Counted from the stretch's first letter, positions 8,581-64,000 are shown. The stretch: DNA of 64,000 nucleotides from an uncultured Candidatus Saccharibacteria bacterium (GCA_964483665.1 CAZACP010000005.1:1910-65909), one strand, 5' to 3'. A program made the numbers and translations. The notes: a model not told the origin generated them from the letters alone.

Positions 8581-8599
8581 AAAACGGTATTTAGATTAT

Positions 8600-8791: not shown

Positions 8792-8797
8792 CAGATA

Positions 8798-12767: not shown

Positions 12768-12852
12768 CTTACGTTGTCCAAAACCGGAAGCCGGGTTAAG
12801 TTGAGGTAAATCTCTCTCACCAAAGCCAGAAAAGTTTTCCACCTGTCTCGAC

Positions 12853-22207: not shown

Positions 22208-22287
22208 GCTAAAAAAACTTGATAAACATTGACAACTCTGGTTTTTGGAGCCATAATATAATGCTATTAAATATTAATTTTAAATAT

Positions 22288-30579: not shown

Positions 30580-31353
30580 ATGTTCGAAAATGAGGTTCGT
30601 TTTAAAACCGGCAGCCGGTGGAGTTTTCCAATGGCTGTGGTAGTGGTAATGGCTGTTTTGGCGTTGTTGGTTTTGGCCAGCAGCGTCAAGGGCGGGGTTA
30701 AAACCGTAAGGCAGAAAGAAAAAATTTACTTGCCCATTGAGCTGAAGCAGTTGCCGGCAAAACAGCCGGCTACTGTGGAGCAAAATAGGGCAGGGATTTC
30801 TAAAGCTTCCGAGCAGCCTTGGGTGGTTGTTAGTAAGCCGACTAAGGTGTTTCGGGCTCCGTCAAGAATTCCCGCGCAGGTGGCGGAAATAAATGACAGA
30901 GATCTCGGGGCGCCGGAAGTGGCTTATGGACATACCGATAATCCAGGTAGTGGTAAGCCCGGGGACAGAGGTTGCCCTGCAGAAGTTTGCGGAAATGTTG
31001 TCAACGTTTCGCCGCCGCCTGTTACCGAAGCAAAGCCAGAGCCAAAAGCTGAACCTTCCGAGCCCGTAAGGGTAAGAAGGGGAGGTGAGGTAATGGCTGC
31101 GCAATTGGTTCGTCAGCCAAAGCCAGTTTACCCGCAGCTAGCCAAAGCGAGTCGGGTTTCGGGATTAGTGCGTCTTACGGCAGTCATTCGCCGTGATGGC
31201 ACTATTTCGGAACTAAGGCTTGTGTCAGGTCATGCGTTGCTGGTGCCCGCTGCCATAGATGCTGTAAAGCAGTGGGTTTACCGCCCAACGCTCCTTAACG
31301 GGGAAGCGGTTGAGGTGGTTACGCAAATAGACGTGCATTTTACGCTTTTGTAG
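30580..31353 (+). CDS. TonB C-terminal-domain protein (N-terminal TM, Pro-rich spacer, TonB_C)
   Basis: PVYPQLAKASRVSGLVRLTAVIRRDGTISELRLVSGHALLVPAAIDAVKQWVYRPTLLNGEAVEV matches the TonB C-terminal fold; GC-rich (~55%). Confidence 0.55.
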   Translation: MFENEVRFKTGSRWSFPMAVVVVMAVLALLVLASSVKGGVKTVRQKEKIYLPIELKQLPAKQPATVEQNRAGISKASEQPWVVVSKPTKVFRAPSRIPAQVAEINDRDLGAPEVAYGHTDNPGSGKPGDRGCPAEVCGNVVNVSPPPVTEAKPEPKAEPSEPVRVRRGGEVMAAQLVRQPKPVYPQLAKASRVSGLVRLTAVIRRDGTISELRLVSGHALLVPAAIDAVKQWVYRPTLLNGEAVEVVTQIDVHFTLL

Positions 31354-36932: not shown

Positions 36933-37325
36933 AATAATAAAACAATAAAAATTTTCAGATCTATTGCGCTTAGATCTTAAATATTAAATCATCGGCAAGA
37001 AAAAACTTGTTGATGAATCTGAACTTAGTGGCTTATGCAGCCGGGCCAAACTCAGACTTGCTCGCAATTAGCAAACAATAGACCGCAGATACGCAGATCT
37101 AAACAGATCATGCAGATAAATACAAACTATGGTTTGGTAACTGACTTTGGTTTCAAATAAACTAACTAATTTAATACATTATAGCACAGCGGGTGTTGCT
37201 TGTCAACAAGTTTTTTATACAAAAGTCCTTAGGTAAATTACTGGTGCCGCTGAAGAGACCCCGGTACCAGTCACTACGACCCCTAAAGGGGGCGGTTCCG
37301 GTACGGGGCAGGTTTGAACTTAGAA

Positions 37326-47369: not shown

Positions 47370-47678
47370 ATGATTAATTTAGACCAAACATTAAACAGCC
47401 TAATTCAGGAATTAGATTTAGAGGGGAGCGAGCAGGAAGTTTTAGAAGTAAAAGCCGAGTTAAAAGACAAATTTTATAAAGTGGTTATAGACACTCTTGT
47501 AAATAATTTAACTCCAGAGCAAAAACAGGAGTTTTTGCGTATTCTTAAAGAACAGCAGGATCCGAGTGTAGAAATAGAAAAGCTGGCAGCAAGCGTGCCC
47601 GGCCTTTTAGGCCAAATAACCGACGCCTTAGACAGAGAACTAAAGCTAATAAGGTCGTTTTTTGGTAAAAATCAATAA
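47370..47678 (+). CDS. hypothetical coiled-coil protein
   Basis: 102-aa ORF. Confidence 0.3.
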   Translation: MINLDQTLNSLIQELDLEGSEQEVLEVKAELKDKFYKVVIDTLVNNLTPEQKQEFLRILKEQQDPSVEIEKLAASVPGLLGQITDALDRELKLIRSFFGKNQ

Positions 47679-47692
47679 ACTATATAAAGAGA

Positions 47693-47727
47693 AAAGACCG
47701 GAGCTTTGCGGGCGTCCGGTCTTTTTT
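47693..47727 (+). terminator. rho-independent terminator
   Basis: AAGACCGGAG...TCCGGTCTTTTTT. Confidence 0.5.
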
Positions 47728-47758: not shown

Positions 47759-48505
47759 TTATGGCCGGGAGCGGCGGAGAAGAGCGATGGCGGCGAGGCT
47801 GATGCCTATGAGCCCTAACGTGGTTGGTTCAGGGACGTCGGACTCGAAGTCGAATTTCGTGTTTGCATCACGGGTGTTAATCGTGAAGTTGTCCACGTTA
47901 CCTACAAACCCTGTCCAGCCACCGCCAGCTTTGAACTGTGTTACGCCGCCAGCACGGACACCGGCGTTGGGGAACGCAGTCAACACTTGGGCCCAGGTGC
48001 ACGGACTGCCAATGGAGCAAGCGGCGTTTCCGGGTGCGCCGGAAAACCACCAATTGGCGCCAGTGGCCATGGTATCCCAGGTTTGCCAAGTGTTGTCGGC
48101 AACGGCTTGGGTGTAATAGGCTTCGTATACCAGCCTTCCCATCCATGCGTTGTTGGTGTCCGTCAGATCGGTGTCTATATCGAATTGCAGCGACGGGGCG
48201 AGCGCCGGCCCGCCAGCTGAACGGTACGTGCTGTACGACAGCGTGGAAATGGCAGCAAGAGGCATGAGCTGGTACGCGAGTGTGCCGAGCAACATCCTGT
48301 CGCCGGCGGCGTCAACGCTGAGTTGCGCAGAGCCTGTGCCGAGCGGGGGAGTACCGGGTCCTTCCATTATTGTGCCGGATGCACCGGAACCACTCTCCAC
48401 GACAAATGCCCACCCGTTCATGTTGGACGGGTTTACCACGATGGTTGCGGCGCTGACTGTGAGGCCGAGCGCGAGAAACGCAATAAAGGCGGTTGCCTTC
48501 ATCAT
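47759..48505 (-). CDS. PEP-CTERM sorting-domain secreted protein
   Basis: Signal peptide, C-terminal VPEPTTLGLIGISLAAIALLRRSRP (PEP + TM + basic tail); ~60% GC. Confidence 0.65.
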   Translation of the reverse strand: MMKATAFIAFLALGLTVSAATIVVNPSNMNGWAFVVESGSGASGTIMEGPGTPPLGTGSAQLSVDAAGDRMLLGTLAYQLMPLAAISTLSYSTYRSAGGPALAPSLQFDIDTDLTDTNNAWMGRLVYEAYYTQAVADNTWQTWDTMATGANWWFSGAPGNAACSIGSPCTWAQVLTAFPNAGVRAGGVTQFKAGGGWTGFVGNVDNFTINTRDANTKFDFESDVPEPTTLGLIGISLAAIALLRRSRP

Positions 48506-48583
48506 AATAATTCACTCCTGTTTGTGTAGTGACAAAAAAAGAGGGCTCTAGATTTCGCTAGGATCCTCCTTAATTGACATAAA

Positions 48584-48612
48584 AGTATATCTTTTATTAG
48601 GGTTTTTGTCAA
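48584..48612 (-). promoter_or_regulatory. consensus sigma70 promoter TTGACA-N17-TATACT for PEP-CTERM gene
   Basis: Minus-strand TTGACAAAAACCCTAATAAAAGATATACT. Confidence 0.45.
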
Positions 48613-48781: not shown

Positions 48782-48855
48782 TGGTGGACCTTGGGAGAAT
48801 CGAACTCCCGCATGCCGGATGCAAACCGGCCGCACTACCACTATGCTAAAGGCCC
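48782..48855 (-). tRNA. tRNA-Ala (anticodon UGC)
   Basis: GGGCCTTTAGCATAGTGGTAG...TTTGCAT...GGGAGTTCGATTCTCCCAAGGTCCACCA; G3:U70 pair present. Confidence 0.8.
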
Positions 48856-49411: not shown

Positions 49412-49486
49412 TGGTGGGTGCGGGAAGGATCGAACTTCCGACCCCGTCATTATCAGTGACGTGCTCTACCACTGAGCTACGCACCC
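49412..49486 (-). tRNA. tRNA-Ile (anticodon GAU)
   Basis: GGGTGCGTAGCTCAGTGGTAGAGCACGTCACTGATAATGACGGGGTCGGAAGTTCGATCCTTCCCGCACCCACCA. Confidence 0.8.
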
Positions 49487-49728: not shown

Positions 49729-50805
49729 ATGCTGAAATTAAGAAAATCAACGGTAGAAACAAAAATCTTTGAAAATTGTAAAATGCTTTTCGATAAATTT
49801 TTTGCAAAAAAAACTTCGGTTTTAGGTGTGGATATAGGCACTTCGAATATTAAAATTGCCCAAATTTCTCACCAAGCATCCCCGGTTTTAGAAACTTACG
49901 GCATGGTAAATTCTCCGTACCAGTTTTCCGGCAAGCAAGACTCAGAAGCAGTAAAAAAAACTTCCGATATTCTTAAAAAATTAATAGATAAAGCCGGAGT
50001 TACGACCAACGCTTGCGTTATTAGTTTCCCAAATAGCTCGGTTTTTACCTCTGTTTTAGAACTGCCGCAAATGAATGAGGTGGAAATGAAGTCTGCGGTG
50101 GAATTTGAAGCAAAAAAATATGTCCCGCTAGCTCTTTCTGACATTGACCTGTCTTGGACTGTGCTTTCAGTAGACCCACTTTCAGGTAAAACGGTCAAAA
50201 TACTGCTAACTGCGGTGCCTAAACAAATTACCCAAAACTATTTGGCTATTTTGGAAAATTTAGGCTTAAAGGCCCAAGCCGGGGAAATTGAGGCTTTGGC
50301 TTTAATTCGCTCGTTAATAGGTGGGGATAATATAAATTGTGTTATAATAGATATAGGTGCAAAGTCTACCAGTTTGAATATTGTTGAAAATGGATTTTTA
50401 AGACTCAGTCGAAATTTAAATATCGGTGGAGATACAATTACCCAAAAAATCGCGGAAAGTTTAAGGCTCTCTTTTCCGCGGGCAGAACAATTTAAGAAAG
50501 ATTTTGGGGTAAGCGGCTCGACTTTTATTCCAGAAACTATAAAACCCGTATTGAATATTGTAAAAAATGAGGTTAAACAGCTGTTGATGATATACCAGTC
50601 GCAGAATGTAAAAGTAGACAAGCTGGTGTTGGTGGGGGGCGGAGCTATGCTTCCCGGGATCAGCGACTACTTTTCTGACTTAAAGGTGGGCGTTGAATTA
50701 GGAAACCCTCTAAAATTAGTGGCTTATTCTAAAGAGCTGGAGCCACTAATAAAAAGATATACATTAAATTTAGCAGTGGCTATAGGGTTAGGTTTAAGGA
50801 AATAA
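49729..50805 (+). CDS. pilM: type IV pilus assembly protein PilM (actin-like ATPase fold)
   Basis: VLGVDIGTSNIKIAQ N-terminal motif, size, position at head of pil operon; start may be internal Met at ~49786. Confidence 0.75.
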   Translation: MLKLRKSTVETKIFENCKMLFDKFFAKKTSVLGVDIGTSNIKIAQISHQASPVLETYGMVNSPYQFSGKQDSEAVKKTSDILKKLIDKAGVTTNACVISFPNSSVFTSVLELPQMNEVEMKSAVEFEAKKYVPLALSDIDLSWTVLSVDPLSGKTVKILLTAVPKQITQNYLAILENLGLKAQAGEIEALALIRSLIGGDNINCVIIDIGAKSTSLNIVENGFLRLSRNLNIGGDTITQKIAESLRLSFPRAEQFKKDFGVSGSTFIPETIKPVLNIVKNEVKQLLMIYQSQNVKVDKLVLVGGGAMLPGISDYFSDLKVGVELGNPLKLVAYSKELEPLIKRYTLNLAVAIGLGLRK

Positions 50806-50879
50806 AAATTTTTTAAACTGTAATATAAAAATAAATAATTTTACTTACTTAGATTTTAGCTAAGGCTACTAAAATAAAT

Positions 50880-51443
50880 ATGGCGGAAATAAATTTATTA
50901 AAAACCCCTGGGTCTGAGCGAAATATTTTTCAAGACTTGTCTAGTTGGCTGGTAAAAATTTTAGTTGTGTTGGCTTTGGCTGTAATCGGCTATTACGGGT
51001 ATGTTTTTTTCAAGGTTAAGGCTACTACTAAAGAAATTGGGGAAATTCAGCAAGATATTGAAAAAAACAAAGTTGAAGCTTTGTCCCTGCCGGGCAGAGA
51101 CGAATTTTTGTTAAGACAGTCTCAGTTAAAAGACTTTGCGGCCTTAACAGGGGCGCACATTTATTATTCGAAACTTATTCCGGCGTTGGCAAAGGTCACA
51201 TATAAATTAGCTAACTATAGCGGTATAAACGTAACCACACAAGGAAAAATTACAATGCAGGCTACTGTGCCTAGTTTGGCTGATTTAGACAAATTTTTAC
51301 AGGTTTTTGATGATTCTGAAGTTAGTAAAAATTTTTACAATGTACGCGTGGGTGGTTTTAGTCAAATTGAGGTTTCCGACGGGAAAGCTTATATTTTTAC
51401 AGTCCAAATGGATTATAATCCCGCAATTTTAGCAGCTAACTAA
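50880..51443 (+). CDS. pilN: PilN-like type IV pilus assembly protein (single N-terminal TM)
   Basis: Topology and position after pilM. Confidence 0.5.
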   Translation: MAEINLLKTPGSERNIFQDLSSWLVKILVVLALAVIGYYGYVFFKVKATTKEIGEIQQDIEKNKVEALSLPGRDEFLLRQSQLKDFAALTGAHIYYSKLIPALAKVTYKLANYSGINVTTQGKITMQATVPSLADLDKFLQVFDDSEVSKNFYNVRVGGFSQIEVSDGKAYIFTVQMDYNPAILAAN

Positions 51444-51449
51444 ATTTTT

Positions 51450-52070
51450 ATGAACGAACTTCCAAAAACTTTTGCTAAAATTCAACTGCCCCCGATTAAT
51501 AAGCAAAACCAGGTAAGTATGATAGAAATGTTTTTATTGGTAGTTATTATTACACTTTTTTATTTTTTTGTTATTTCCCCTAAAAAGGCAGAGCTTGTTA
51601 GTTTAAATACAAAAGCCGAAGCTTTAAGAGCAGAACAAGGCAAAATACAAACTCAAAAAAAGGATTTAGAGAATTTTATTAGCAATATGAAGGCAAGTCC
51701 GGATTTAATAACTAAATTAGACGAAGCTCTTCCACTAAATGGGAAAGTTATGACACTCCATTTAATAATGGATAAGCTGGTAAGCGAGGCGGGTGTTAGT
51801 GCTGACAGTATTTCGTTTAGCGGAAGTTCAGAATCACCCCTTGCTGGCAATAGAGATTTAATTTTAAATCCGTATGGTACTAAACGGTCTCTAAAAAAAA
51901 TATTGGGTAGCCTTAGTGTTAAAGGTACATTTGAACAAATACAAATTTTTTTAAAAAAACTCGAGGAGAGTGGCAGACTTTTTGACTTAAGTGATATGCA
52001 AATGAATATAGATGCAATGGGATTAGTCCATTTAAATTCCACTTTATCAACTTATTACTTTGCGCCTTAA
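51450..52070 (+). CDS. pilO: PilO-like type IV pilus assembly protein
   Basis: Single TM + coiled coil + periplasmic domain; position. Confidence 0.45.
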   Translation: MNELPKTFAKIQLPPINKQNQVSMIEMFLLVVIITLFYFFVISPKKAELVSLNTKAEALRAEQGKIQTQKKDLENFISNMKASPDLITKLDEALPLNGKVMTLHLIMDKLVSEAGVSADSISFSGSSESPLAGNRDLILNPYGTKRSLKKILGSLSVKGTFEQIQIFLKKLEESGRLFDLSDMQMNIDAMGLVHLNSTLSTYYFAP

Positions 52071-52087
52071 GAATTAAGACTAAACGG

Positions 52088-52414
52088 ATGAACAAAAAAA
52101 ATTTGGTTCAGATAGTTATAATATTTGCTTGTTTTTCGGCGAGCGGTGTTGTTATTTATAATAATTTTCTTAAAAAAGCCGATCTACCTTCTGAACTAAC
52201 AGGACAAGTAATTAAACCTGGAGTACAGCCGGACGCACCTATTTTGCCAGGAGGAGCCTCTTTTGATTTAGATGTAATTTCTAAGGCTAAATTTAGATTT
52301 AATTTATTAGATTACCCTAAACTTAAGCCTGAAAGCGAAGTTGGCGTAGAAGAGCAAAATGTTTTAAAGCCTTTGGTTCAATCTCAATCAGGAACTAACA
52401 CAACAAAAAATTAA
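52088..52414 (+). CDS. small membrane-anchored protein (possible PilP-like)
   Basis: 108 aa, N-terminal TM; position between pilO and pilB. Confidence 0.3.
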   Translation: MNKKNLVQIVIIFACFSASGVVIYNNFLKKADLPSELTGQVIKPGVQPDAPILPGGASFDLDVISKAKFRFNLLDYPKLKPESEVGVEEQNVLKPLVQSQSGTNTTKN

Positions 52415-52417
52415 GTT

Positions 52418-54172
52418 ATGGCTACAACTAATAGAACCGCAGTAGATGATGGCCAGACTTTTGCTAAATTTTTAGCTCAGAATGGTTTTGTGCCAGAGCA
52501 AGTTGTGCAGCAGCTAGAAACAGTCAGGCAAAAAACCGGCCAAGATTTAACACAGCTACTAATTGCCAGGAATATTTTGCAGGAAGAGGACGCCACTAAA
52601 GCAAAAGCGGCTTTTTTCAACATTCCTTATGTCGATTTAAGACAGTTGCAAATTCCTCCCCAAGTAACGACCTTAATACCCCAAGAATCAATTAATTTTT
52701 ATAATTTTGTTCCATTTGAATTAAAAGGAAATTTACTTAAGGTTGCAATTACTGACCCTGGAAATTTGTCCGCTTTACAGGCATTGGAATTTTTAGGTCA
52801 AAAACAAAATTTGCAAGTACAACTCTATTTGGCCTCTGAAACTTCGGTGGGTATTGTCAGTGGAAAAAGGCAAAATTTAAAAAAAGTGGTTGGGCAGGCT
52901 TTAAAAGACATACAAACAAAGGAAGATGTTGAACAAAAGCCCATTTTGGAGCAAAAAGAAGCCAAGCCCCAAGTAATTGAAGACGCCCCTATAATCAAAA
53001 TTGTTGAGGTTATCCTTAGCAACGCTATTGAGGCGAATGCTTCAGATATCCACGTTGAGCCTTCAGAAAAGGATGTGAGAGTTCGCTATAGAATAGACGG
53101 TATTTTACATACCTCGTTGGTGTTACCCAGAAATGTGCTTTCTGCTATTGTTACCCGCGTAAAAATCTTGTCGAATTTAAAAATAGACGAATCGCGTCTT
53201 CCGCAAGACGGCAGATTTCATATGGAGGTAGGAAAAAAATCGGTTGATTTGCGTGTTTCGATTTTGCCCTTAATATATGGCGAAAAGATAGTGATGCGTA
53301 TTTTGGACAAGACCGGGTCGGTGCCAACACTTGAACAGCTTGGGCTTAGGGGGATTGCGCTCAAATGGGTGCAGGAAAATATAAAAAAGACCCATGGAAT
53401 TTTTCTTATTACCGGACCTACGGGTAGCGGTAAATCAACAACTTTATATGCAATTTTGTCTATTTTAAATACCCCCAGTGTCAACATTATTACTTTGGAG
53501 GATCCGGTTGAATACTTTATGGAAGGGGTAAACCAGAGCCAGGTTAATTCGGAAATTGGTTTAACTTTTGCGGCTGGACTCCGTTCTATTTTGCGTCAAG
53601 ACCCTAATATCGTTATGGTTGGTGAAATTCGAGACAAGGAAACCGCGGAAATCGCCGTTCATGCAGCCTTAACGGGGCACTTACTTTTTTCGACCCTTCA
53701 CACTAATAATGCAATTGGCGCTATGCCGAGAATGATAGATATGGGCATAGAACCGTTTTTGCTAACCGCTTCTGTCAATGTAGTTATGGCTCAGCGTTTA
53801 GTTAGAAAGATTTGCCCGCACTGCAAGAAAGAAGCAGAAATCCAACCCGCGTTTTTAGAGGAAATTAAAAAAGATTTATTAACTGTGCCTAAGGAGTATT
53901 TAGAAGGATTAGATCAAAGTAATTTAAAGGTATATAAAGGAGCCGGCTGCGAGAAATGCGGCCATACCGGTTATACAAGCCGGTTTGGAATTTTTGAAGT
54001 TTTGGCGGTTACCAATGAAATTCAGGACATGGTTCTTTCGAAAGCCTCTACTCATAAAATTTACGAAGCAGGGGCAAAAATGGGCATGATAACAATGAAA
54101 CAAGATGGGTATTTAAAAGCATTACGAGGAGAAACCACAATAGATGAAATAATTAGGGTGACGACGGAATAA
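52418..54172 (+). CDS. pilB: type IV pilus assembly ATPase PilB (GspE family)
   Basis: N-terminal GSPII_E_N domain, Walker A GPTGSGKST, Asp/His boxes, tetracysteine CPHC...CEKCGH. Confidence 0.85.
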   Translation: MATTNRTAVDDGQTFAKFLAQNGFVPEQVVQQLETVRQKTGQDLTQLLIARNILQEEDATKAKAAFFNIPYVDLRQLQIPPQVTTLIPQESINFYNFVPFELKGNLLKVAITDPGNLSALQALEFLGQKQNLQVQLYLASETSVGIVSGKRQNLKKVVGQALKDIQTKEDVEQKPILEQKEAKPQVIEDAPIIKIVEVILSNAIEANASDIHVEPSEKDVRVRYRIDGILHTSLVLPRNVLSAIVTRVKILSNLKIDESRLPQDGRFHMEVGKKSVDLRVSILPLIYGEKIVMRILDKTGSVPTLEQLGLRGIALKWVQENIKKTHGIFLITGPTGSGKSTTLYAILSILNTPSVNIITLEDPVEYFMEGVNQSQVNSEIGLTFAAGLRSILRQDPNIVMVGEIRDKETAEIAVHAALTGHLLFSTLHTNNAIGAMPRMIDMGIEPFLLTASVNVVMAQRLVRKICPHCKKEAEIQPAFLEEIKKDLLTVPKEYLEGLDQSNLKVYKGAGCEKCGHTGYTSRFGIFEVLAVTNEIQDMVLSKASTHKIYEAGAKMGMITMKQDGYLKALRGETTIDEIIRVTTE

Positions 54173-54255
54173 AATAAATGACAAAAATTAAAAAAATGAT
54201 AAAAATTAAGTGCAGAAATACAGGAATATTTTTGCCATTTATGTTCATTTAAATT

Positions 54256-54678
54256 ATGGCTTATTTTGAAAAACAAAAATTTAATATTTTAGAGTTAGTT
54301 TTAAGAAAAGATTCGCCAAGGAAAATTTTGTTGGTAGAACCCGAGTATTATTTGCGGGTACTGTTAAAAAATTTATTGGAAAAAGAAAATTTTTTGGTTG
54401 CCAGCGCAGAAAAGATATCCGAAAGCAAGTTAATTTTAGAATTTTTTGAGCCAGATATTGCTGTTATCAGCCCGCATTCTGAAAAAGATCTGCAAGTTTT
54501 TTTATTAGGGCTTTCTGATTTAAGAAAGCAGTACCAAACTTTACGTATCTTAACTGTAGGGCACCGTTTACCGGTTGAAGCAATGAAGAAAATTATGGAT
54601 TTAGGAGTGTCTTCTCATTTGGAAAGAGCCTTAACAAGACCGCATGATATTGCTGCGGTAATAAAAACTTTATTTTAG
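54256..54678 (+). CDS. receiver-domain-like protein lacking canonical phospho-acceptor residues
   Basis: CheY-like alternating pattern KILLVEPE...DIAVISP but the acidic pocket DD and phospho-Asp appear replaced. Confidence 0.35.
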   Translation: MAYFEKQKFNILELVLRKDSPRKILLVEPEYYLRVLLKNLLEKENFLVASAEKISESKLILEFFEPDIAVISPHSEKDLQVFLLGLSDLRKQYQTLRILTVGHRLPVEAMKKIMDLGVSSHLERALTRPHDIAAVIKTLF

Positions 54679-54719
54679 AAAATGAAGTCATGGTGAATTT
54701 TAAAAATTAATAAATTCAT

Positions 54720-55790
54720 ATGTATAAAGTTAGCGAACTTGAGTTAAATAAGCTTTTGTCTTTGCTATTAGAGCGCGATGCCTCGGATTTGCATTTAATG
54801 GTAGGCGAACCGCCTATTATTCGTGTTGATACCCAGTTAATCCGCTTAGACACTTACCAGGCATTGAGTTCAGATAGTATAAAAGATTTATTAAATGTTT
54901 TACTCAAGCCGCAACAAAAAAAGATTTTTGAAGACAGGCTTCAAGTAGATTTTTCATACGCCTTTAAAGAAAATATAAGATTCCGTGTTAATGCGTATTT
55001 ACACAAGGGAATGCCGGCTATTGCGATGCGCGTAATTCCTACTCATATTAAAACTTTGGAAGAGTTAAATTTGCCCGGTATTTTAAAAAAATTCACCGAC
55101 AGGAAACAGGGTCTGGTATTGATGGTGGGTCCTACAGGACATGGAAAATCTACTGCCCTGGCCTCTTTAATAAATGAAATAAATAATACAAGATCTGAAC
55201 ATATTTTAACTATTGAAGATCCGGTGGAATTTATGTTTACTGCAAATAAATCTATTATTAGCCAAAGGGAAGTGCTTTTGGATACACCGGATTTTGCCAG
55301 TGCCTTAAGGTCAGCATTGCGCGAAGACATTAATGTTGTATTGGTTGGTGAAATGCGGGACTTAGAATCAATTTCTAGCGCTTTGACAATCGCTGAAACA
55401 GGCCACCTGGTTTTTGCCACCTTGCATACCAATGATGCAGCTCAAAGCATTGACCGTATAGTAGACGTTTTTCCGCCCGGCCAGCAAGGTCAAATAAGAA
55501 GTCAATTAGCCAGCGTTTTGGTGGGTGTGGTTAGTTTGCGCCTTTTGCCGAAAGTGGGGGGCGGGCGAGTACCGGCTTACGAAATTTTAGTCACTAATCA
55601 CGCAGTTAGGAATGTTATCCGCGATAATAAAGTTTATGAAATTCCTAATATTATTCACACTTCCATGGAAGAGGGTATGATACCTTTAGACAAAACCTTA
55701 GCTTTGCTTGTTAAGCAGGGTGTTGTTGAGCTTGAGACTGCGCAGAATTTTGTTTTAGACAATGAGTATTTTTTGTCATTAATATCTTGA
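54720..55790 (+). CDS. pilT: twitching motility ATPase PilT
   Basis: Walker A GPTGHGKST, HLVFATLHTN, size 356 aa. Confidence 0.85.
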   Translation: MYKVSELELNKLLSLLLERDASDLHLMVGEPPIIRVDTQLIRLDTYQALSSDSIKDLLNVLLKPQQKKIFEDRLQVDFSYAFKENIRFRVNAYLHKGMPAIAMRVIPTHIKTLEELNLPGILKKFTDRKQGLVLMVGPTGHGKSTALASLINEINNTRSEHILTIEDPVEFMFTANKSIISQREVLLDTPDFASALRSALREDINVVLVGEMRDLESISSALTIAETGHLVFATLHTNDAAQSIDRIVDVFPPGQQGQIRSQLASVLVGVVSLRLLPKVGGGRVPAYEILVTNHAVRNVIRDNKVYEIPNIIHTSMEEGMIPLDKTLALLVKQGVVELETAQNFVLDNEYFLSLIS

Positions 55791-55868
55791 AGGCTACGAA
55801 AGTGCTAAAATTACGAAAATACTAAAATCATTTTTCGTACTTTAGTGCCTTTCGTACTTTAGTAGCCT

Positions 55869-57074
55869 ATGAAATTTCAATACAAAGCCAGAAGCAAAGA
55901 TGGTCCAATAAAATCAGGATTGGTTGTCGCCGCAGACCAAGAAAGAGCCGAGCAGCTTTTGAGCGAGAACGGTTTAATTATTATTTCTTTAGAACAAGAA
56001 AAGGAAAGTCTTTTTGCGCGCATAAATCCGTTTGGTAAATCAGTAAGTAATAAAGATATAGTCTTATTTTCCAGGCAATTGGCAACTTTGGTTTCCGCAA
56101 GAGTTCCGATCTTACAGGCCTTAAGAATTCTTGAAGAGCAAATTTCTAATCAATATTTAATTACAATCGTTCAGGATTTGATCAAATCCGTAGAAAATGG
56201 AGAGTCGTTGTCGCTTGCTATGAATAAGCATGAAAAAGTTTTTAGCAGCGTTTATGTGAGTTTAGTTAAGTCTGGCGAGGTTTCGGGCAGTTTAGACAAG
56301 TCCTTAAGCTATTTGGCTGATCAGCAGGAAAAAGATTATGAGCTTAGGGCTAAGGTTAAAAGCGCCATGACTTACCCTGGGTTTGTGTTGGGAGCTTTAG
56401 GTGTTGTGGGTGTTTTAATGTTTAAATTTGTATTGCCCAAATTAACCTCTGTTTTAGAAGAACAAGGCGGCGAGTTACCGGTAATTTCTAAAGGTCTTAT
56501 TGCTTTTACCCATTTTTTTGACAAATTCTGGTGGATGGTAATTTTACTGTTTGCTTGTTTAGTGGTTGCCGTGCGTTTTTATGTTTCAACTGAAAAAGGC
56601 CGCTATAACTGGGATAGTCTAAAAATTAGGCTGCCTATTGTTGGAGATATTTTTAAAAAAATCTATCTAGCTAGATTTGCAAGAAATCTTTCTACTTTAG
56701 TTATTGGAGGCATACCTATTATTAAGGCTTTGCAAATTGTGGCGGATGTTATAAACAACGTAGTTTATAGGGAAATTGTTTTGGAGTCTGTAACAAAAAT
56801 TTCAGCTGGCAAAAGCATAAGCGAAGGGCTTTCGGGGCACCCGGAGTTTCCGAATATTGTTACCCAGATGGTTAAGGTTGGGGAGCAGACAGCTCAATTG
56901 GACGAAATTATGAATAAGTTAGCATTATTTTACGAAAAGGAAGTGGATACGAAAGTTGCAACGTTATCCACTTTGCTGGAGCCAATTATTATGATAATTT
57001 TAGGCCTAGGAGTAGGCTTGTTGGTAGCCGGTGTATTGATGCCGATTTATAATTTAGCCAGTACTATCCAATAG
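55869..57074 (+). CDS. pilC: type IV pilus platform protein PilC (GspF family)
   Basis: Two T2SSF repeats, 3 TM topology, 401 aa. Confidence 0.8.
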   Translation: MKFQYKARSKDGPIKSGLVVAADQERAEQLLSENGLIIISLEQEKESLFARINPFGKSVSNKDIVLFSRQLATLVSARVPILQALRILEEQISNQYLITIVQDLIKSVENGESLSLAMNKHEKVFSSVYVSLVKSGEVSGSLDKSLSYLADQQEKDYELRAKVKSAMTYPGFVLGALGVVGVLMFKFVLPKLTSVLEEQGGELPVISKGLIAFTHFFDKFWWMVILLFACLVVAVRFYVSTEKGRYNWDSLKIRLPIVGDIFKKIYLARFARNLSTLVIGGIPIIKALQIVADVINNVVYREIVLESVTKISAGKSISEGLSGHPEFPNIVTQMVKVGEQTAQLDEIMNKLALFYEKEVDTKVATLSTLLEPIIMIILGLGVGLLVAGVLMPIYNLASTIQ

Positions 57075-57199
57075 GCAAACTTGGCTTAGTCCACTCGCTG
57101 TTGATAAGTATTTTGCTAAATTATTGATTTTTTGCTTTAATAATATTAATAAGTTGAATTGCCAGAAGGTAACTTTTTGCAATCTCATCCACATTAAGA

Positions 57200-57664
57200 T
57201 TGGGGGTGAAAACTTTGAGAAACAAAAACGAAAAAGGTTTTACTTTAATTGAATTATTGGTGGTTATTGCGATTATCGGTCTTTTAGCGTCCGTGGTCTT
57301 GTTGGCCTTAAATTCGGCTCGAGCCAAATCCAGAGACGCCAAGAGATTAGCGGACGTTAGACAGATGGCATCTGCCCTTGAATTATATTTCAATGATGTC
57401 AGCTCTTATCCGACTTCGAACGGCGCAACTGTTACCTTAATAACAGGTCAGCCAACTCTAACCCCTACTTATTTAGGATTAATACCAACAGCTCCTTCAC
57501 CAGCAGATGGTAGCTGTGATGCAACCTCTAATGGATATCGTTATTTAGCAGGTGTGGCCAGTCAAAACATAACTGGAACCTATAGTCTAGGCTTTTGTCT
57601 TGGTGCGGCAACCGGCGGTTACTCGGCAGGACAACACACTTTAACTCCTGCTGGTATACAATAG
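57200..57664 (+). CDS. type IV pilin (major pilin candidate)
   Basis: Prepilin leader ...KG/FTLIELLVVIAIIGLLA (G-1, F+1, E+5). Confidence 0.7.
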   Translation: MGVKTLRNKNEKGFTLIELLVVIAIIGLLASVVLLALNSARAKSRDAKRLADVRQMASALELYFNDVSSYPTSNGATVTLITGQPTLTPTYLGLIPTAPSPADGSCDATSNGYRYLAGVASQNITGTYSLGFCLGAATGGYSAGQHTLTPAGIQ

Positions 57665-57752
57665 TTCGATATTTACAAAAGGATGCTTTTCTTTAGAAAA
57701 GCATCCTTTTTTGCTATAATATAGACAATATTAGGAAGCTTTTTTAAAAATA

Positions 57753-58142
57753 ATGGATTTATATATTTCTTCGAACATTCGAAACAGTTTAATAATAGTT
57801 ATTTTGGCTATAGTGGTGTTGGTATTGGTTTTTGTTGGTATTTCCGACGGAAAGAGACAGGCTAAAAGCGCTTTAATTTTAAATTGGGCATCGGAAGAAA
57901 CTTTAGCCTTAGAATATTTTTACAGGGACAATAATCGTTTTCCCACAGCAGATGAATTTGCCAGGCCTGAAGTAATGGGAAATTATTTTGTTAAAGCCCC
58001 GGAAGGAGTAAATATTCAAACAGAGCAGTGCCCGGAAATTTTAAAGTATACTAGGCCTAGGTCAGAAAGTTATGAACTGTACTTTTGCCTGCCAAGGGCG
58101 CAAGACGGCTATAATCTTGGCTTAAATCAATTTGTCAGGTAG
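57753..58142 (+). CDS. hypothetical TM protein
   Basis: 129 aa, N-terminal TM, no prepilin motif. Confidence 0.3.
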   Translation: MDLYISSNIRNSLIIVILAIVVLVLVFVGISDGKRQAKSALILNWASEETLALEYFYRDNNRFPTADEFARPEVMGNYFVKAPEGVNIQTEQCPEILKYTRPRSESYELYFCLPRAQDGYNLGLNQFVR

Positions 58143-58188
58143 GTTTTATAATTATAAAGTAGCTAATAAAGTTCCTAATTAATTTATT

Positions 58189-60153
58189 ATGATTTCATTG
58201 CCAAGGCTGCCGTACAGAGAAGATAAGCTATTTTCAGTTCTCGTTCTGCTGGTTTTAGTTGTTCCGTTAGCTTTTTCTTGGGAATTTTATGAAAAATTTG
58301 AAACAATAAAATTAGTATTATGGGCAGTATTACTTTCGGCATGTTTGGTTTTACTGAGTGTTAAAAAAGAGATTTACCAAATTAATCGGGTAGTCGTGTT
58401 TTTGTTCGGCGGGCTTTTATTTTTTGGTCTTTTTGCCGCGCTACTTGCGCCAAATATTAGTAACGGTTTTTTGGGCAGTTACCCCCGGTTTACCAGTAGT
58501 TTTTTATTTTATTTTTTACTTATTTTTACACTTTGGTTATTTTCTGCAAATCTTGATATAAAAAAATGGAAATTTTTGCTTTGGGTTGTATATTTTGATG
58601 CCGTGGTTGTTGCTCTTGTGGGTATAATGCAGAGTTATGGCGTGGGGTACTATACCGGCATCGAGCAGACACAGATTTCACGCGCCCCCGGTCTTTTGGG
58701 CAACCCTAATTTTTCTAGTATGTTTTTGGTGGCGGTAATGCCTTTTACCTTGCCTTTTTTTTATTACGCAAGAAATTTTGCCGCCAAAATGTATTATTTA
58801 GTTTCTGGAATTTTAATGCTTTTTGCAGTTATACTTTTTTCTAGCCGGGGATCTTGGCTTGCGCTGGCAGCTGGTCTTGGCAGCCTTCTTTTAATACTGT
58901 TGTTGTCTAGGCTCCCCAAAAAATTTTTTTTGAGCTTATTATTAGTAACTTTTATAATATTTGCTTTTATAGGCTTCTTTGAGAAATTTGCCCGGCCAGG
59001 AACCTTAAAAGCTACTTTTCGGCTTTCAGAAACAAATATTGACTATAGGTTATATGCTTGGGATTTGGCCCGTAAGGCGATATCTGAGCACCCCGTGCTG
59101 GGTTTTGGCCCGGGCAGTACCCAAATATATTTTGAGCGTTTTAGAGATTCCAATTTAATGCAAGGCGCTGGAATATTTGACGATGTTCATAACCTGCCGC
59201 TTCAAATGGCTGTAAGCGCCGGGCTGCCTTTTATGCTTTGTTTTTTAGGAATTTGGGCGATAGTTTTTTGGCAATCGTATAAAAAGTTAAAAGTTGACCC
59301 AAGGGATTTTTGGACTATTGCCCAGGTGGTTTCTTTAGTGGCATGGTTTGCGGCCAGCTGTTTTAATCCGGTTTCAACTGCTAATTTTTTATTGTTGGCG
59401 GTTGTGTTTTCAGGTTCTTTAATTAACGGCAGTGAAAATATTAAGTTAAGTATTTGGACGAAGCCAGCTTTTTTACTTGCGGCTCTGAGCCTGGCTATTT
59501 TTGGCTTTAGTTTGGCTTTTGGTGAATTTTTCTTTTACCAGTCAGTTAAAAATTACCAAAGTCAAAATTTTGAAAAATGCCAAAAAAATGCTCGATTGGC
59601 TAGGTACGCTAATCCAACCAATCAGCTCTATTATGTATATGAAACTGCTTGTAAAATTATAATTAACCCAGACCCGGAAACTTTAAAACAAGATTTAAAA
59701 CATATTACGAGTTTACAGGCTCAAAGCGCAAAGACAGAAGTTTTAGCCTCAAATTTGTCTTATTTGATGTATATCCGTACAAATGACTCAACATTTTTAG
59801 ATTTAGCAATAAATTATATTCAAAAATCCTTAGAAAAAGATAAAAGTTATGCTCCCCGCTATACTCACGCAGCCTTTTATTTAGCTGAAAATAACCAATT
59901 ACTTGAATCTAAAGAATATTTAAAAGTTTCTCTTTCAATAGACAAAACAAGCTTGCCGGCTTGGTTATTGCTTGCCAGAGTCTATCAGTTGCTCGATAGG
60001 CCGGAGCAAATGAGGTACGCTCTTAATGAAGCGTTTAAACTGAGTCCGCTGGACTCAAATTTAAATCGCTTAAATCAGGCGGCAAAAAATGAAAAGGAAA
60101 TTAAAAATTTAAATATTCCGGCATTAATTAATTTTTTACAAATTGAGTCTTAG
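58189..60153 (+). CDS. O-antigen ligase (Wzy_C) family polytopic membrane protein with C-terminal TPR repeats; candidate pilin O-oligosaccharyltransferase
   Basis: ~12 TM with FSSRGSWLALAAGLGS loop motif typical of the Wzy_C/WaaL/PglL family; C-terminal TPR-like helical repeats; sits between pilin and pilD. Confidence 0.5.
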   Translation: MISLPRLPYREDKLFSVLVLLVLVVPLAFSWEFYEKFETIKLVLWAVLLSACLVLLSVKKEIYQINRVVVFLFGGLLFFGLFAALLAPNISNGFLGSYPRFTSSFLFYFLLIFTLWLFSANLDIKKWKFLLWVVYFDAVVVALVGIMQSYGVGYYTGIEQTQISRAPGLLGNPNFSSMFLVAVMPFTLPFFYYARNFAAKMYYLVSGILMLFAVILFSSRGSWLALAAGLGSLLLILLLSRLPKKFFLSLLLVTFIIFAFIGFFEKFARPGTLKATFRLSETNIDYRLYAWDLARKAISEHPVLGFGPGSTQIYFERFRDSNLMQGAGIFDDVHNLPLQMAVSAGLPFMLCFLGIWAIVFWQSYKKLKVDPRDFWTIAQVVSLVAWFAASCFNPVSTANFLLLAVVFSGSLINGSENIKLSIWTKPAFLLAALSLAIFGFSLAFGEFFFYQSVKNYQSQNFEKCQKNARLARYANPTNQLYYVYETACKIIINPDPETLKQDLKHITSLQAQSAKTEVLASNLSYLMYIRTNDSTFLDLAINYIQKSLEKDKSYAPRYTHAAFYLAENNQLLESKEYLKVSLSIDKTSLPAWLLLARVYQLLDRPEQMRYALNEAFKLSPLDSNLNRLNQAAKNEKEIKNLNIPALINFLQIES

Positions 60154-60952
60154 TACACTAGCTACAATTTTAGTTTTTATTTTTGGCGCCTGCATGGGAA
60201 GCTTTTTAAACGTTGTCGTCTGGCGGCTGCCCAGGGGAGAAAAGCTAACAGGAAGGTCTATGTGCCCGCACTGCGGGCATACGTTAGACCCGGTTGATTT
60301 GGTGCCGTTTTTAAGTTTTGCTCTGCTTAAGGCCAAGTGCCGGAATTGCCAAAAAAAAATTTCTCCTCGTTACCCACTAGTCGAGTTAACGGTCGGCGTT
60401 TTATTCGTTTTTACCTTTTTATTTTTAATGCCTGGGACTGTTTTGGAGTGGATTTTTTTTGCTCGGACAATTATATTGGTTTTTTTCTTAACGGCTATTT
60501 TTATTATTGACTTAGAGCATTTTTTAATTTTAGACAGCATAATACTGGTTGGATCAGTAATTTTGACAGTTCTAAATTTGGTGCTTGATTTTTATTCAGG
60601 AGCAAAAGTTTTTAGTCTCGCATCTTTTGGTGTTGGGGGGATTTTTGCCGGCTTGCTTGCCGCATTACCATTTTTTGCGATTTGGTTTTTTTCAAAAGGG
60701 CTGTATATGGGTTTTGGAGACGTAAAGTTAGCTATATTTTTAGGTATTGCCCTTGGTTTGAAGCTGGTTTGGGTGGCGGTTTTTTTAGGGGTTTTACTAG
60801 GGGGAATTGTCAGCATATTTTTGCTGTTTGGTTATAAAAAAGACTTAAAGACAAAGTTGCCGTTCGGAACTTTTTTGGCTTTGGGGGCATTTATCGCAAT
60901 CTTTTATGGTTCGCCGCTGTTAAAATGGTATTTAGCCATCTTGGGAATTTAA
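60143..60952 (+). CDS. pilD: prepilin peptidase (A24 family)
   Basis: N-terminal CxxC...CxxC zinc motif (CPHCGH...CRNC), polytopic, catalytic Asp region FGDVKL. Confidence 0.8.
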   Translation: MSLSTLATILVFIFGACMGSFLNVVVWRLPRGEKLTGRSMCPHCGHTLDPVDLVPFLSFALLKAKCRNCQKKISPRYPLVELTVGVLFVFTFLFLMPGTVLEWIFFARTIILVFFLTAIFIIDLEHFLILDSIILVGSVILTVLNLVLDFYSGAKVFSLASFGVGGIFAGLLAALPFFAIWFFSKGLYMGFGDVKLAIFLGIALGLKLVWVAVFLGVLLGGIVSIFLLFGYKKDLKTKLPFGTFLALGAFIAIFYGSPLLKWYLAILGI

Positions 60953-61131
60953 TGGTATAATATTCACACCTGCCCGCAATGCCTACTCAAATAATCTAAG
61001 CAAATTTTGTGTGTTTGGTTATTTTGTTAATTCATCAGTACTTTGAAATTATATAGAGGTAGGCAGGCGGGGATACGCAGATAATATAGCAGATTACACA
61101 GACAGGAGTACTAAAACTTGACGAAACAAAA

Positions 61132-61887
61132 ATGTCTTCAAGGCCTCAAATATCAAATATCAAATATCAAATACCCGAAAAAGGTTTTACTGTTGTTGAA
61201 CTAATGGTTGTTTTGGTAATATTTGCAACAATTACCGGGATTGTCCTGGCTAATTACGCCGGCCTTAGGACTGCCCGTAATTTGAAAATTGCCCAGAATG
61301 AATTAGTAACCAATTTAAGAAAAATTTCCAGCTATACACTCTCTTCTAGAGCTATAAACGGTTCTCAGGCTGTTCAATTTTATTTACTAAAGTTAGATAC
61401 TCAAGCACCGGGAAAATATACTATAGAAGCAATTTACGATGTAACTACTTCTCCTAAACTTGCAGCCGAAATCGAAACAATATATTTGCCGCAGGGAATA
61501 CAATTTTCAAGCATAGCGCCTTTTGTTATAGACAGACCTGATCCGAATATCGACTTTCCGAACACTATTCCGCCTACAGGTTCTTTAGATGTTTCGGCTC
61601 TAAATGGTAATATCAGTTCTTGCGCTTTAGTAGCGTACAAACTTCCGTTTGGAAACATAATTGTAAATTCCGGACGCGATAATTTAAATACTTCTAACAC
61701 CGGCTGCACTTTTAACAATTTTAGCAATGACGATTACGTAAAAATCAAGAATTTTGTGGCCAACAGCCCGACTAATACGGCGGTCAACAATTCTGTTTTA
61801 ATTATAACTTTAAGCTCAACTGATGGGACGCTAACTAAAACCGTGACTGTAAACGGCTTAACCGGCGCAATAACTTTTAGTCCTTAA
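61132..61887 (+). CDS. type IV pilin-like (minor pilin)
   Basis: Leader ...EKG/FTVVELMVVLVIFA. Confidence 0.55.
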   Translation: MSSRPQISNIKYQIPEKGFTVVELMVVLVIFATITGIVLANYAGLRTARNLKIAQNELVTNLRKISSYTLSSRAINGSQAVQFYLLKLDTQAPGKYTIEAIYDVTTSPKLAAEIETIYLPQGIQFSSIAPFVIDRPDPNIDFPNTIPPTGSLDVSALNGNISSCALVAYKLPFGNIIVNSGRDNLNTSNTGCTFNNFSNDDYVKIKNFVANSPTNTAVNNSVLIITLSSTDGTLTKTVTVNGLTGAITFSP

Positions 61888-61888
61888 T

Positions 61889-62611
61889 ATGAAATTTTCT
61901 CTGAAAGAAAACAAAAAATATCAGCTGGGTCAGACCTTAATAGAAACTGTGGTCGCGGTGTTTATTTTAGTTATGGGAATAGTCGCGGCTTTGGGACTGG
62001 CTATTTACGCGCTTAATGCTTCAAGTAATGTATCTAAACAAATTATTGGCATTGGTCTTGCCAGGGAGGGAATAGAAGCTGTAAAAAATATGCGCGATAC
62101 AAATTGGCTTAAATCAAGTGTTTCAACTAATTGTTATAATTATTCTTCAGGTTCAAATAATGCAAGTTGTTATGATAAGTGGCTAGGAGACTCCGGCTGT
62201 GGGGGAACAGGGAATGACAAAGGTTTTTGTATTTTTAACACCGGAAGCGGAACAAAAAGTTTTCGTTTAAGCGTTCAGCCAAATATTGCGGATAAATTTT
62301 GGGCTTTTGACGAAGAAAATCAAAATGAATTTGGTTTAAATTTGGATTCAAATGTTTCAAATAGTAGCTTTGTTGGTTTTTATGTTTCAGCCAATGGTTT
62401 GTCGAATGGTAGCTCCGATTTTTATAGAGAAATAGTTTTAACTAAAGACACTTCCGGAGCATTTACCCAAAATAATATGGAAAGACTTCAGGTGAAAGCT
62501 CGTGTTTGGTGGGTGGATAAAAAGTGTCCAAGAGTTGTTGCCTTCAGTTCAGCTAAAGTAACCTGTAGAATTGAACTTCAATCGTACTTAACTAATTGGA
62601 AAAACTGGTAA
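61889..62611 (+). CDS. type IV pilin-like (minor pilin)
   Basis: Leader ...QLG/QTLIETVVAVFIL (E+5). Confidence 0.5.
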   Translation: MKFSLKENKKYQLGQTLIETVVAVFILVMGIVAALGLAIYALNASSNVSKQIIGIGLAREGIEAVKNMRDTNWLKSSVSTNCYNYSSGSNNASCYDKWLGDSGCGGTGNDKGFCIFNTGSGTKSFRLSVQPNIADKFWAFDEENQNEFGLNLDSNVSNSSFVGFYVSANGLSNGSSDFYREIVLTKDTSGAFTQNNMERLQVKARVWWVDKKCPRVVAFSSAKVTCRIELQSYLTNWKNW

Positions 62612-62659
62612 AATAAACCAAAAAGCGGTTTACCCCGCACCACTTTTATTAATTAAAGT

Positions 62660-63409
62660 ATGAGAAAATTTATCTTTATACAACAAAAAAAAAATCTAAA
62701 TAAACCCTCATTTTCTAAAAATGGTGCCGGGTTTACTTTAATGGAAATAGTGGTGGCTACCACCATTTTCGCGCTGGTGGGAACGGCTATGATGGGGCTT
62801 TTTAACTACACTTTAAAAATAAACCGTAGAACCGAAGCCTTAAGGCAGGCAACGCAAGGTATGAGAACTTTTGTTGAAGGTTTGGTTAAGCAGGTTAGAA
62901 ATGGACAGGTGTATTATGGACTGGATAATTCTTTTAGTCCGCCAACCCCGGCAGTAGACAACAGCACAGTGTGCGGAGCTGGTGCGGCATATAACAGGTA
63001 TTATCAGGACATAGAAAACAGGCTTAGGATTACTGATACTGACGGAGCTGATGTTTGTTTTTATTTAGCTAATAGTTCAGGAGCTTACGTGAACGCAGGA
63101 AATTTTAGCGGCAGCCAGTTAATAATGGAAAAAAATGTTGGCAGTGGTTATGTAAAACAGGTTTTAAGCCCTTCCAATTTTTATGTCGACAACCTTGTCT
63201 TTTTTGTTCGTCCTGTTTGCGACCCGTATAATCATTGTGATGCGGCTTCCGGTAATATTTATTCGCCTGGTCAGCCGCCTAAAATTCAACCTTCAGTCAG
63301 TATATTTTTAAAACTCAGGGTTTTACTTGCTACCGGTGAAACAGTAAGAATAAATTACCAAACTTCAGTTTCCAGCAATAAATATGATATACCAAATGTC
63401 TATCCATAA
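62660..63409 (+). CDS. type IV pilin-like (minor pilin, PilW/V-like)
   Basis: Leader ...NGAG/FTLMEIVVATTIFA. Confidence 0.55.
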   Translation: MRKFIFIQQKKNLNKPSFSKNGAGFTLMEIVVATTIFALVGTAMMGLFNYTLKINRRTEALRQATQGMRTFVEGLVKQVRNGQVYYGLDNSFSPPTPAVDNSTVCGAGAAYNRYYQDIENRLRITDTDGADVCFYLANSSGAYVNAGNFSGSQLIMEKNVGSGYVKQVLSPSNFYVDNLVFFVRPVCDPYNHCDAASGNIYSPGQPPKIQPSVSIFLKLRVLLATGETVRINYQTSVSSNKYDIPNVYP

Positions 63410-64000
63410 ATTTTCAAGTAAAAAATCTCAGTCGGGTGTTACTTTAATGCTGTCTATTTTGGTCTTGGCTGCTATTTTGTCTATAGCTTTTTCTTTGGCT
63501 ACAGTGACTTTTGTAGAAATTAGGTCTTCGGGCGATTTAATTAGAACTGAACCTGCATATTATGCTGCTGACGCACTTTCGGAAGAGGCTTTGTTTAAAA
63601 TTAAACGAAATATTCCGGATAATAATTTTACTTATGATTCCGGCATAGGGAACGTTACTCTAACCTCTCAAAGTAGTTACACTTCGACGGCTATTTTTCG
63701 CACTGTTGTAAAGAAAAGTAGTTACGATTTTGTTTCTACAAAGTCTCATTTTCCTATATATGATACGCGCTGTCCAGCCCCAAATTCCGACTCAACCTTA
63801 CCTTCTCACTGTTTAACTGGTGGAAGCGGTTATGGGCGAATAAAAATCACCTTTTTAGATACAGGGAATAATGATACCTTAAAAGCTTTTTTGTGCCAGT
63901 TTGACCCACAGAAACCCATAAATTCAGCTTCGCTTGACGGCAGTGCATATACGAATGTACCGTGCTCTAATCCGAATGATACATCTAACGGATATTGGCT
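63396..64000 (+). CDS. PilX-like minor pilin, 3'-truncated by window end
   Basis: Not in ORF track (runs off the window); MSIHKFSSKKSQSGVTLMLSILVLAAILSIAF N-terminus typical of PilX. Confidence 0.4.
   Translation, partial: MSIHKFSSKKSQSGVTLMLSILVLAAILSIAFSLATVTFVEIRSSGDLIRTEPAYYAADALSEEALFKIKRNIPDNNFTYDSGIGNVTLTSQSSYTSTAIFRTVVKKSSYDFVSTKSHFPIYDTRCPAPNSDSTLPSHCLTGGSGYGRIKITFLDTGNNDTLKAFLCQFDPQKPINSASLDGSAYTNVPCSNPNDTSNGYW

Follow-up and report, generated by a model that had tools for sequence, protein, structure and literature searches.

Sorting of surface proteins by the PEP-CTERM/exosortase system is regarded as a property of EPS-producing bacteria of the Gram-negative type. The CPR bacteria are not known to have an outer membrane or the EPS loci that usually accompany exosortases. 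In known genomes, PEP-CTERM proteins co-occur strictly with an exosortase (bioRxiv 10.1101/2023.06.07.544157). In Haloferax volcanii, ArtA removes the C-terminal helix of the abundant PGF-CTERM S-layer glycoprotein, which is left lipid-anchored (bioRxiv 10.1101/2023.06.07.544157). No paper on PEP-CTERM proteins or exosortases in CPR was found in the searchable literature.

In the window studied here (the whole stretch of DNA that was analysed, 64,000 nucleotides), an earlier note had pointed to a gene for a PEP-CTERM protein with no exosortase in view. The protein resembles substrates of the XrtA/EpsH system of diderms: it has the same VPEPxT motif, hydrophobic helix and Arg cluster at the extreme C-terminus, it begins with a signal peptide, and related genomes have paralogous genes with PEP-CTERM tails. 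In contrast to that system, the host is a CPR bacterium without sign of an outer membrane, and neither an exosortase nor an EPS locus nor PrsK/PrsR is in view. The promoter is of the sigma-70 consensus type, whereas the title of an Aquincola floc-gene paper names RpoN dependence. The Haloferax ArtA/PGF-CTERM system is a precedent for an exosortase-family enzyme in a single-membrane cell; unlike the ArtA substrate, the window protein carries PEP rather than PGF and is small and bacterial, and no ArtA-like gene was seen. Zoogloea-type PepA (NF033554) is matched by the second PEP-CTERM gene of a related contig (L096) over ~150 residues (E = 1.5e-7), whereas the ectodomain of the window protein is unrelated to it.

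Results

Protein Architecture and C-Terminal Signal

The features of the gene and its immediate surroundings are listed below, with positions counted from the first nucleotide of the window.

47692..47725, both strands: bidirectional intrinsic terminator, GACCGGA...UCCGGUC plus T-run (from folding)
47759..48505, minus strand: coding sequence of the secreted PEP-CTERM protein, 248 aa plus stop
47762..47836, minus strand: PEP-CTERM sorting signal, aa 224-248 (TIGR02595, PF07589, predicted helix)
47843..48448, minus strand: predicted beta-sandwich ectodomain (jelly-roll, CBM/ConA-like), aa 20-221 (AF2, Foldseek)
48449..48505, minus strand: predicted Sec-type signal peptide, aa 1-19, MMKATAFIAFLALGLTVSA/A (read from the sequence)
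48506..48577, minus strand: 5' leader, ~72 nt; the ATG follows 78 nt after the end of the -10 box
48519-48515, minus strand: Shine-Dalgarno sequence AGGAG, 9 nt before the ATG
48540-48534, minus strand: U-run of the leader
48571-48538, minus strand: 5'-proximal hairpin AAGGAGG ... CUAG-CGAAAU-CUAG ... CCUCUUU (from folding)
48584..48612, minus strand: sigma-70-type promoter, -35 box TTGACA at 48612-48607, 17-nt spacer, -10 box TATACT at 48589-48584
48782..48855, minus strand: tRNA-Ala(TGC), just upstream of the PEP-CTERM gene
49412-49486: tRNA-Ile(GAT), upstream context

The C-terminus of the protein reads VPEPTTLGLIGISLAAIALLRRSRP and consists of a VPEP motif, the TM helix TTLGLIGISLAAIALL and the basic cluster RRSR, so that the tripartite signal that defines PEP-CTERM proteins stands at the very end of the chain. 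Two curated models recognised the tail, TIGR02595 at 23.0 bits, where the cut-off is 16, and PF07589 at 26.0 bits, where it is 20.7; with both cut-offs passed, the signal that had been called canonical is genuine. A further mark of such proteins is an N-terminal Sec signal peptide, which is predicted here from a basic n-region, a hydrophobic core and a VSA/A cleavage site, read by eye. Two ectodomain cysteines, C163 and C169, are nearly invariant, which is consistent with an extracytoplasmic location. Neither an LPXTG nor a PGF signature precedes the terminal helix, where the tail reads VPEPTT, and the protein does not have the form of a sortase or archaeosortase substrate. The best NCBIfam match of the tail was NF033554 (PepA), which reached 35 bits over residues 193-247 only; the equivalog cut-off of this model is 80 bits and there was no full-length match, so the protein is not a member of that family. 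No Pfam or NCBIfam model matched over the ectodomain. In all six frames of the window this was the sole convincing PEP-CTERM ORF; a second ORF, at 37215-37304, with VPEPPPLG... at its end, was set aside as spurious; it overlaps the tRNA-Leu region. The product is confirmed as a genuine PEP-CTERM protein in an unexpected host.

The AF2 model, for which 120 homologs were used, had a mean pLDDT of 92.3, with values of 97-99 over the beta-sandwich (aa 20-221), a terminal helix predicted at 227-245 and low values in the signal-peptide region. Foldseek matched it to CBM11, CBM4 and CBM30 modules and to tailspike and tail-fibre domains of phages, with E-values of 5e-5 to 1e-3 and probabilities of ~1.0, but TM-scores of only 0.34-0.50. 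The jelly-roll fold class is thus common to the window protein, the beta-sandwich CBMs and phage receptor-binding domains, at a sequence identity of ~10-14%, and no PDB chain was matched at the sequence level. The model places the ectodomain in the jelly-roll binding-module class. The fold matches are weak and suggest, at most, binding of glycans or matrix by the ectodomain.

Host and Contiguity

The RNase J encoded in the window belongs to the same 90%-identity cluster as NCBI proteins named 'Candidatus Doudnabacteria'. On this clustering, the host is confirmed as a member of Candidatus Doudnabacteria, CPR, and the earlier impression of a CPR-like background is borne out. The closest named ortholog (P0006) is listed at NCBI as 'PEP-CTERM sorting domain-containing protein [Candidatus Doudnabacteria bacterium]', and the presence of the signal in this group is therefore already in the databases. 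Exactly the same protein was called on 17 contigs, and the gene with 1 kb on each side was 100% identical in six assemblies from different samples. The contiguity of the locus, which had been questioned, holds, and an assembly chimera is excluded by the identity of these six independent assemblies across both junctions.

A type IV pilus cluster occupies 49729-64000 (+) and encodes PilM, PilB, PilT, PilC, pilins and PilD (prepilin peptidase). No secretin was found in this cluster, which is compatible with a single-membrane envelope. No EPS locus is in view at the window either, so the gene stands outside the setting of a diderm envelope with an EPS locus that is typical of PEP-CTERM proteins, though not strictly defining.

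Expression Signals

The promoter TTGACA-17-TATACT described earlier was recovered with a match of 11/12 to the consensus, at 48612..48584 on the minus strand. Matches of at least 11/12 occurred 8 times in the window versus 3.1 times in shuffles. The leader of ~72 nt agrees with the ~70 nt estimated before. Its fold had an energy of -16.5 kcal/mol (z = -1.8), and near its 5' end the motif AGGAGG-N3-CTAGCGAAANCTAG folds into the hairpin, which is followed by the U-run. This motif is common to the window (48534-48571, -) and the related contigs L094 (445-467) and L095 (82-104); it occurs once in the window and was found only upstream of three orthologs of the PEP-CTERM gene. No Rfam family matched the leader, with nothing above sub-threshold noise. 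Each of the orthologs is preceded by a near-consensus promoter with a spacer of 17 nt, a leader of ~40-120 nt and a strong Shine-Dalgarno sequence. 5' stabilisers of abundant mRNAs exist, and the leader hairpin may likewise act as an mRNA stabiliser or as an attenuator. By analogy, the leader could shield the transcript from the RNase J encoded in the window, with attenuation as the alternative.

The terminator serves both the PEP-CTERM gene and the convergent gene at 47370-47678, and with a fold of -22.8 kcal/mol (z = -3.15) it was more stable than all shuffles (0/200 as stable). We infer high expression of the PEP-CTERM gene from these sequence signals and from its codon usage.

GC Content and Codon Usage

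The gene had been estimated at ~60% GC, which is accurate (59.4%). It has a GC content of 0.594 and a GC3 of 0.675, against 0.385 and 0.379 in its flanks and a GC content of 0.3975 in the window, and is the strongest GC outlier among 74 ORFs. The step in GC falls at the ends of the CDS, and the promoter and leader are AT-rich, as in the host. The CPR orthologs are similar (GC 0.55-0.59, GC3 0.60-0.75) and lie in contexts of 0.35-0.42 GC, or 0.46-0.50 on two short contigs, L094 and L096.

Between pairs of orthologs, 54-65% of the conserved degenerate positions use different codons, and third-position differences from GC to AT and from AT to GC are balanced. With synonymous sites saturated, exchanges balanced and GC3 nevertheless held, the high GC is maintained, and the GC3 of the gene is an equilibrium and not the trace of a recent transfer. 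The excess lies mainly in C-ending codons (C3 0.45 vs 0.20 in the host), and the GC3 expected under host codon usage would be 0.44. The host genes for SSB, S6, EF-P and RNase J likewise prefer C-ending codons, without heavy use of CTC. Selection tied to high expression is the simplest explanation for this GC-rich usage of codons that end in C. Such selection is not the whole cause of the bias, because CTC makes up 57% of the Leu codons in the PEP-CTERM gene vs 9% in host housekeeping genes, and by this measure the codon usage of the gene is foreign-looking.

Relatives and Origin of the Gene

The ectodomain belongs to a large family: a word-indexed search returned 158 matches, and an exhaustive one yielded 4,024 clusters at 50% identity. 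It is common in Chloroflexota, Acidobacteriota, Saccharibacteria and Paceibacteria, whose ectodomains are 40-60% identical to that of the window protein. The C-terminal ends are interchangeable within the family, being a PEP-CTERM signal, a Cys-containing module 'CKNGGW...FKNQGxCVS' or a TM helix with an RRR tail. Unlike the window protein, members in these lineages mostly carry the Cys module or the TM helix with RRR, or stand at the N-terminus of giant multi-domain proteins. The Cys module ('D/ExCKxGGW...FKNQGxCVS', ~35 aa) ends most of the homologs P0009-P0120 and had no Pfam annotation in the match table. Several Chloroflexota homologs have short tails of the 'FLPL...R' type, resembling another lineage-specific C-terminal signal. 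In the low-GC CPR homologs (L052, L062, L069), the GC content of the gene matches that of the genome, unlike in the window gene. A metagenome scan with the window protein returned no close relatives, the best match being 54%.

A neighbour-joining tree grouped the PEP-CTERM copies of high GC that lie on low-GC contigs (window, P0002-P0005, P0007, L014 and L017) in a single clade, and the sister of this CPR clade was a PEP-CTERM protein of Solibacteraceae, whose gene has a GC content of 0.57 in a genome of 0.58. This supplies the protein phylogeny that had been called for. One further protein with the same tail (P0014, contig L110) grouped elsewhere in the tree and was placed with the CPR orthologs by synteny. 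At least five other Doudnabacteria-like genomes have orthologs, and the synteny around these is conserved. Between the window and L008, where the ortholog also lies beside UvrA, UvrC and SBP, the identities were 82% (UvrA), 57% (UvrC), 46% (SBP) and 63% (PEP protein). L007, L009 and L110 share the order SelR-PEP-207aa-6PGD, with neighbours 60-76% and the PEP protein 55-63% identical.

This pattern of gene order and divergence shows vertical inheritance of the gene within the Doudnabacteria group. The tree suggests a single old acquisition from an Acidobacteria-like diderm: an acquisition is probable because the CPR clade has as its sister a protein of Solibacteraceae whose gene has the GC content of its genome, and it is old because the orthologs are syntenic and have diverged like their neighbours. 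The earlier suggestion of an acquired surface protein is thus probably right as regards acquisition, but not as regards a recent import, which is rejected on synteny and saturated synonymous sites.

Search for a Sorting Enzyme

Annotation with Pfam and NCBIfam, which within the window took in all sizeable ORFs and all polytopic proteins, revealed neither an exosortase nor an archaeosortase there or in the 10 kb flanking it at each end (~84 kb, perhaps a tenth of the genome), and the statement that no exosortase is in view holds for this region. The polytopic proteins of the window were identified as EamA, Wzy_C, prepilin peptidase, PilC and a DedA/VTT protein. In ~85 kb of Doudnabacteria-like loci (L007, L008, L009, L017, L094-L096 and L110), neither enzyme was detected either. 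A regex for Cys/Arg exosortase motifs, possibly too strict, gave only one spurious reverse-frame match among the multi-TM ORFs of all loci. Pfam assigned all ten multi-TM ORFs taken from related loci and others to transporters and the like, and a plasmid tblastn with the PepA-like relative, aimed at an annotated exosortase, returned nothing.

Selection has acted on the sorting signal. Eight diverged CPR orthologs, which differ at 23-45% of their residues, keep PEPxT invariant, whereas the preceding linker and the helix vary freely. One PEP-CTERM gene is present in the visible 84 kb of the host, and two lie side by side in both L008 and L096. The further genes of these relatives, both above the TIGR02595 cut-off, encode a 69-aa Cys protein with a PEP-CTERM tail (L008 1296-1505, GC-rich) and a 227-aa PepA-like PEP-CTERM protein directly downstream of the ortholog (L096 3057-3740); a weak XDD4-like fragment on L094 is also listed among the further GC-rich PEP-CTERM genes. 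The unrelated PEP-CTERM proteins of the relatives also keep VPEP.

Discussion

We propose that the product of the gene is a strongly expressed surface protein of Candidatus Doudnabacteria, which would be exported by Sec and would turn a ~200-aa, disulfide-containing beta-sandwich of CBM type outward. The C-terminal PEP-CTERM helix and Arg cluster would first hold the protein in the cytoplasmic membrane. The family would have entered the ancestor of the Doudnabacteria group once, probably in the direction from an Acidobacteria-like diderm, and would then have been inherited vertically under purifying selection, PEPxT included. Since this selection extends to PEPxT, an exosortase-type enzyme, presumably encoded outside the window, would still read the tail, cut the protein at the motif and anchor it anew, in the manner of XrtA in diderms and of ArtA in archaea. 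The role may be adhesion to glycans or matrix on the envelope. We put the probability of this explanation as a whole, that of a strongly expressed, Sec-exported, PEP-CTERM-anchored and enzyme-processed surface protein acquired once in ancient times, at roughly 0.55.

The empty searches of ~84 kb of the genome and ~85 kb of its relatives would also be expected if the genome had no exosortase and the tail were only a stop-transfer anchor to the single membrane of a monoderm, in which case the PEP motif may be kept for structural reasons, e.g., as a helix cap at the membrane interface. This would suit a CPR host with a small genome; the helix and RRSR are enough for anchoring, and homologs of other lineages make do with a plain TM helix and RRR tail. 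However, the search covered less than about 10-15% of the genome, and a bare anchor accords poorly with the invariance of PEPxT over eight orthologs whose linker and helix are free to vary, with the VPEP retained in unrelated PEP-CTERM proteins of relatives and with the rule of strict co-occurrence. The invariant PEPxT, the extra PEP-CTERM genes of the relatives and the co-occurrence rule together speak for, though they do not prove, an enzyme outside the visible region that processes the tail, and against a bare anchor. The exosortase-independent use that the earlier note had offered found no positive support, as the first two of these observations favour recognition by an enzyme, and we would not expect it to be correct, although it deserves to be kept in mind.

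If an enzyme does process the tail, the product might even be a major envelope protein of S-layer type, lipid-anchored after cleavage like the Haloferax PGF-CTERM glycoprotein, with codon bias and leader reflecting extreme expression. The near-consensus promoter, the 5'-proximal hairpin with its SD-like AAGGAGG, the strong Shine-Dalgarno sequence and the strong terminator are in line with such a role, as are a C-ending codon bias above even that of ribosomal and SSB genes, a GC3 at equilibrium and the ArtA/S-layer precedent in monoderm archaea. On the other hand, a mature size of ~21 kDa is small for an S-layer protein, and the predicted fold resembles binding modules and not lattice formers. 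We consider this improbable, and it would be a special case of the enzyme-processed surface protein proposed above instead of a true alternative to it. The sharp GC step at the CDS ends, the adjacent tRNA-Ala and the foreign-looking Leu codon usage could also be read as marks of a recently transferred passenger gene, or of an assembly or binning artefact behind the GC island. That reading has very little probability in the face of six independent assemblies identical across both junctions, syntenic orthologs in diverged genomes with saturated synonymous sites, and a promoter and leader as AT-rich as the host.

A PEP-CTERM protein that is conserved in Doudnabacteria and, it appears, highly expressed there would lie outside the supposed range of this sorting system among Gram-negative EPS producers. 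The questions raised are whether an exosortase exists in CPR, how the signal acts in a one-membrane cell and whether the protein belongs to an apparatus by which an episymbiont attaches. The gene is also a clear case of a compositional island without recent transfer, which calls for caution in the detection of horizontal transfer by GC content.

More speculatively, and with considerable doubt on our part, single-membraned Doudnabacteria might have taken a whole PEP-CTERM repertoire (the beta-sandwich family, the PepA-like protein, the small Cys protein and the XDD4-like protein) from an Acidobacteria-like diderm and kept it for long, with an undescribed CPR exosortase or with none, as GC islands at equilibrium that perhaps form a dominant adhesin or envelope layer. 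Were this tentative picture true, episymbionts may attach via such a layer to PEP-CTERM/EPS-producing hosts or flocs.

Other Features of the Window and Related Contigs

Several further envelope genes were noted. Between a pilin gene and the prepilin peptidase gene lies a gene for a Wzy_C/O-antigen-ligase-like protein of 654 aa with 12 TM helices (58189-60153), and a 694-aa Laminin_G_3 protein is encoded downstream, past the end of the window (L012). A protein of canonical TonB type (30580-31353, +), in which a TM helix at the N-terminus is followed by a Pro/Lys/Glu-rich linker and a TonB_C domain, scored 58 bits against PF03544 and 29.5 bits against TIGR01352 (cut-off 27.1) and is a second diderm-type envelope protein in the window. 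Its gene, which has a raised GC content (0.526), is conserved across the species cluster, and neither ExbB/ExbD nor a TonB-dependent receptor was found near it. The gene at 22219-24639 (+), with a putative TTG start, encodes an 806-aa secreted, Ser/Asn/Tyr-rich protein with ~90-aa repeats, weak He_PIG and Big_2 matches and no NCBIfam match, which is probably another surface adhesin. Two ORFs without family match, at 27911-28240 (+) and 28417-28857 (+), have GC contents of 0.49-0.50 and GC3 values of 0.53-0.55; one encodes a 109-aa Cys-containing secreted protein and the other a 146-aa membrane protein with 3-4 helices.

Further gene-sized GC-rich islands occur on the related contigs, at L096 3-485, 1095-2033 and 3057-3740, L110 2-790 and L008 1296-1505. 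They have a GC content of 0.55-0.61 with AT-rich intergenic DNA between them, and each corresponds to a secreted or membrane-anchored protein; PEP-CTERM tails are present in two of these proteins and absent from the others. Low-GC Doudnabacteria-like genomes may thus have a class of surface-protein genes that are rich in GC. The L110 gene call at 119-754 (-), 211 aa, lies on the wrong strand, over a GC-rich secreted-protein gene on the plus strand, and was rejected.

A segment of 10.45 kb at 2355-12805 begins 12 nt past tRNA-Glu (2268-2342). Its genes include those for a serine recombinase (2309-3835), for an HTH/Peptidase_M78 pair and for an SMC/ABC-type ATPase of 790 aa. A second assembly of this species (L010) has an SSF-transporter segment of 1.6 kb in its place, with flanks 97-99.9% identical, and the 10.45-kb segment is probably an integrative element. 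On L110, a bAvd (DGR accessory) gene at 6323-6691 lies two genes away from the ortholog, and L007, a Doudnabacteria MAG contig, carries at 1538-6278 a COX1-COX4 haem-copper oxidase (Pfam COX1, COX2, COX3 and COX4_pro) and UbiA cluster.
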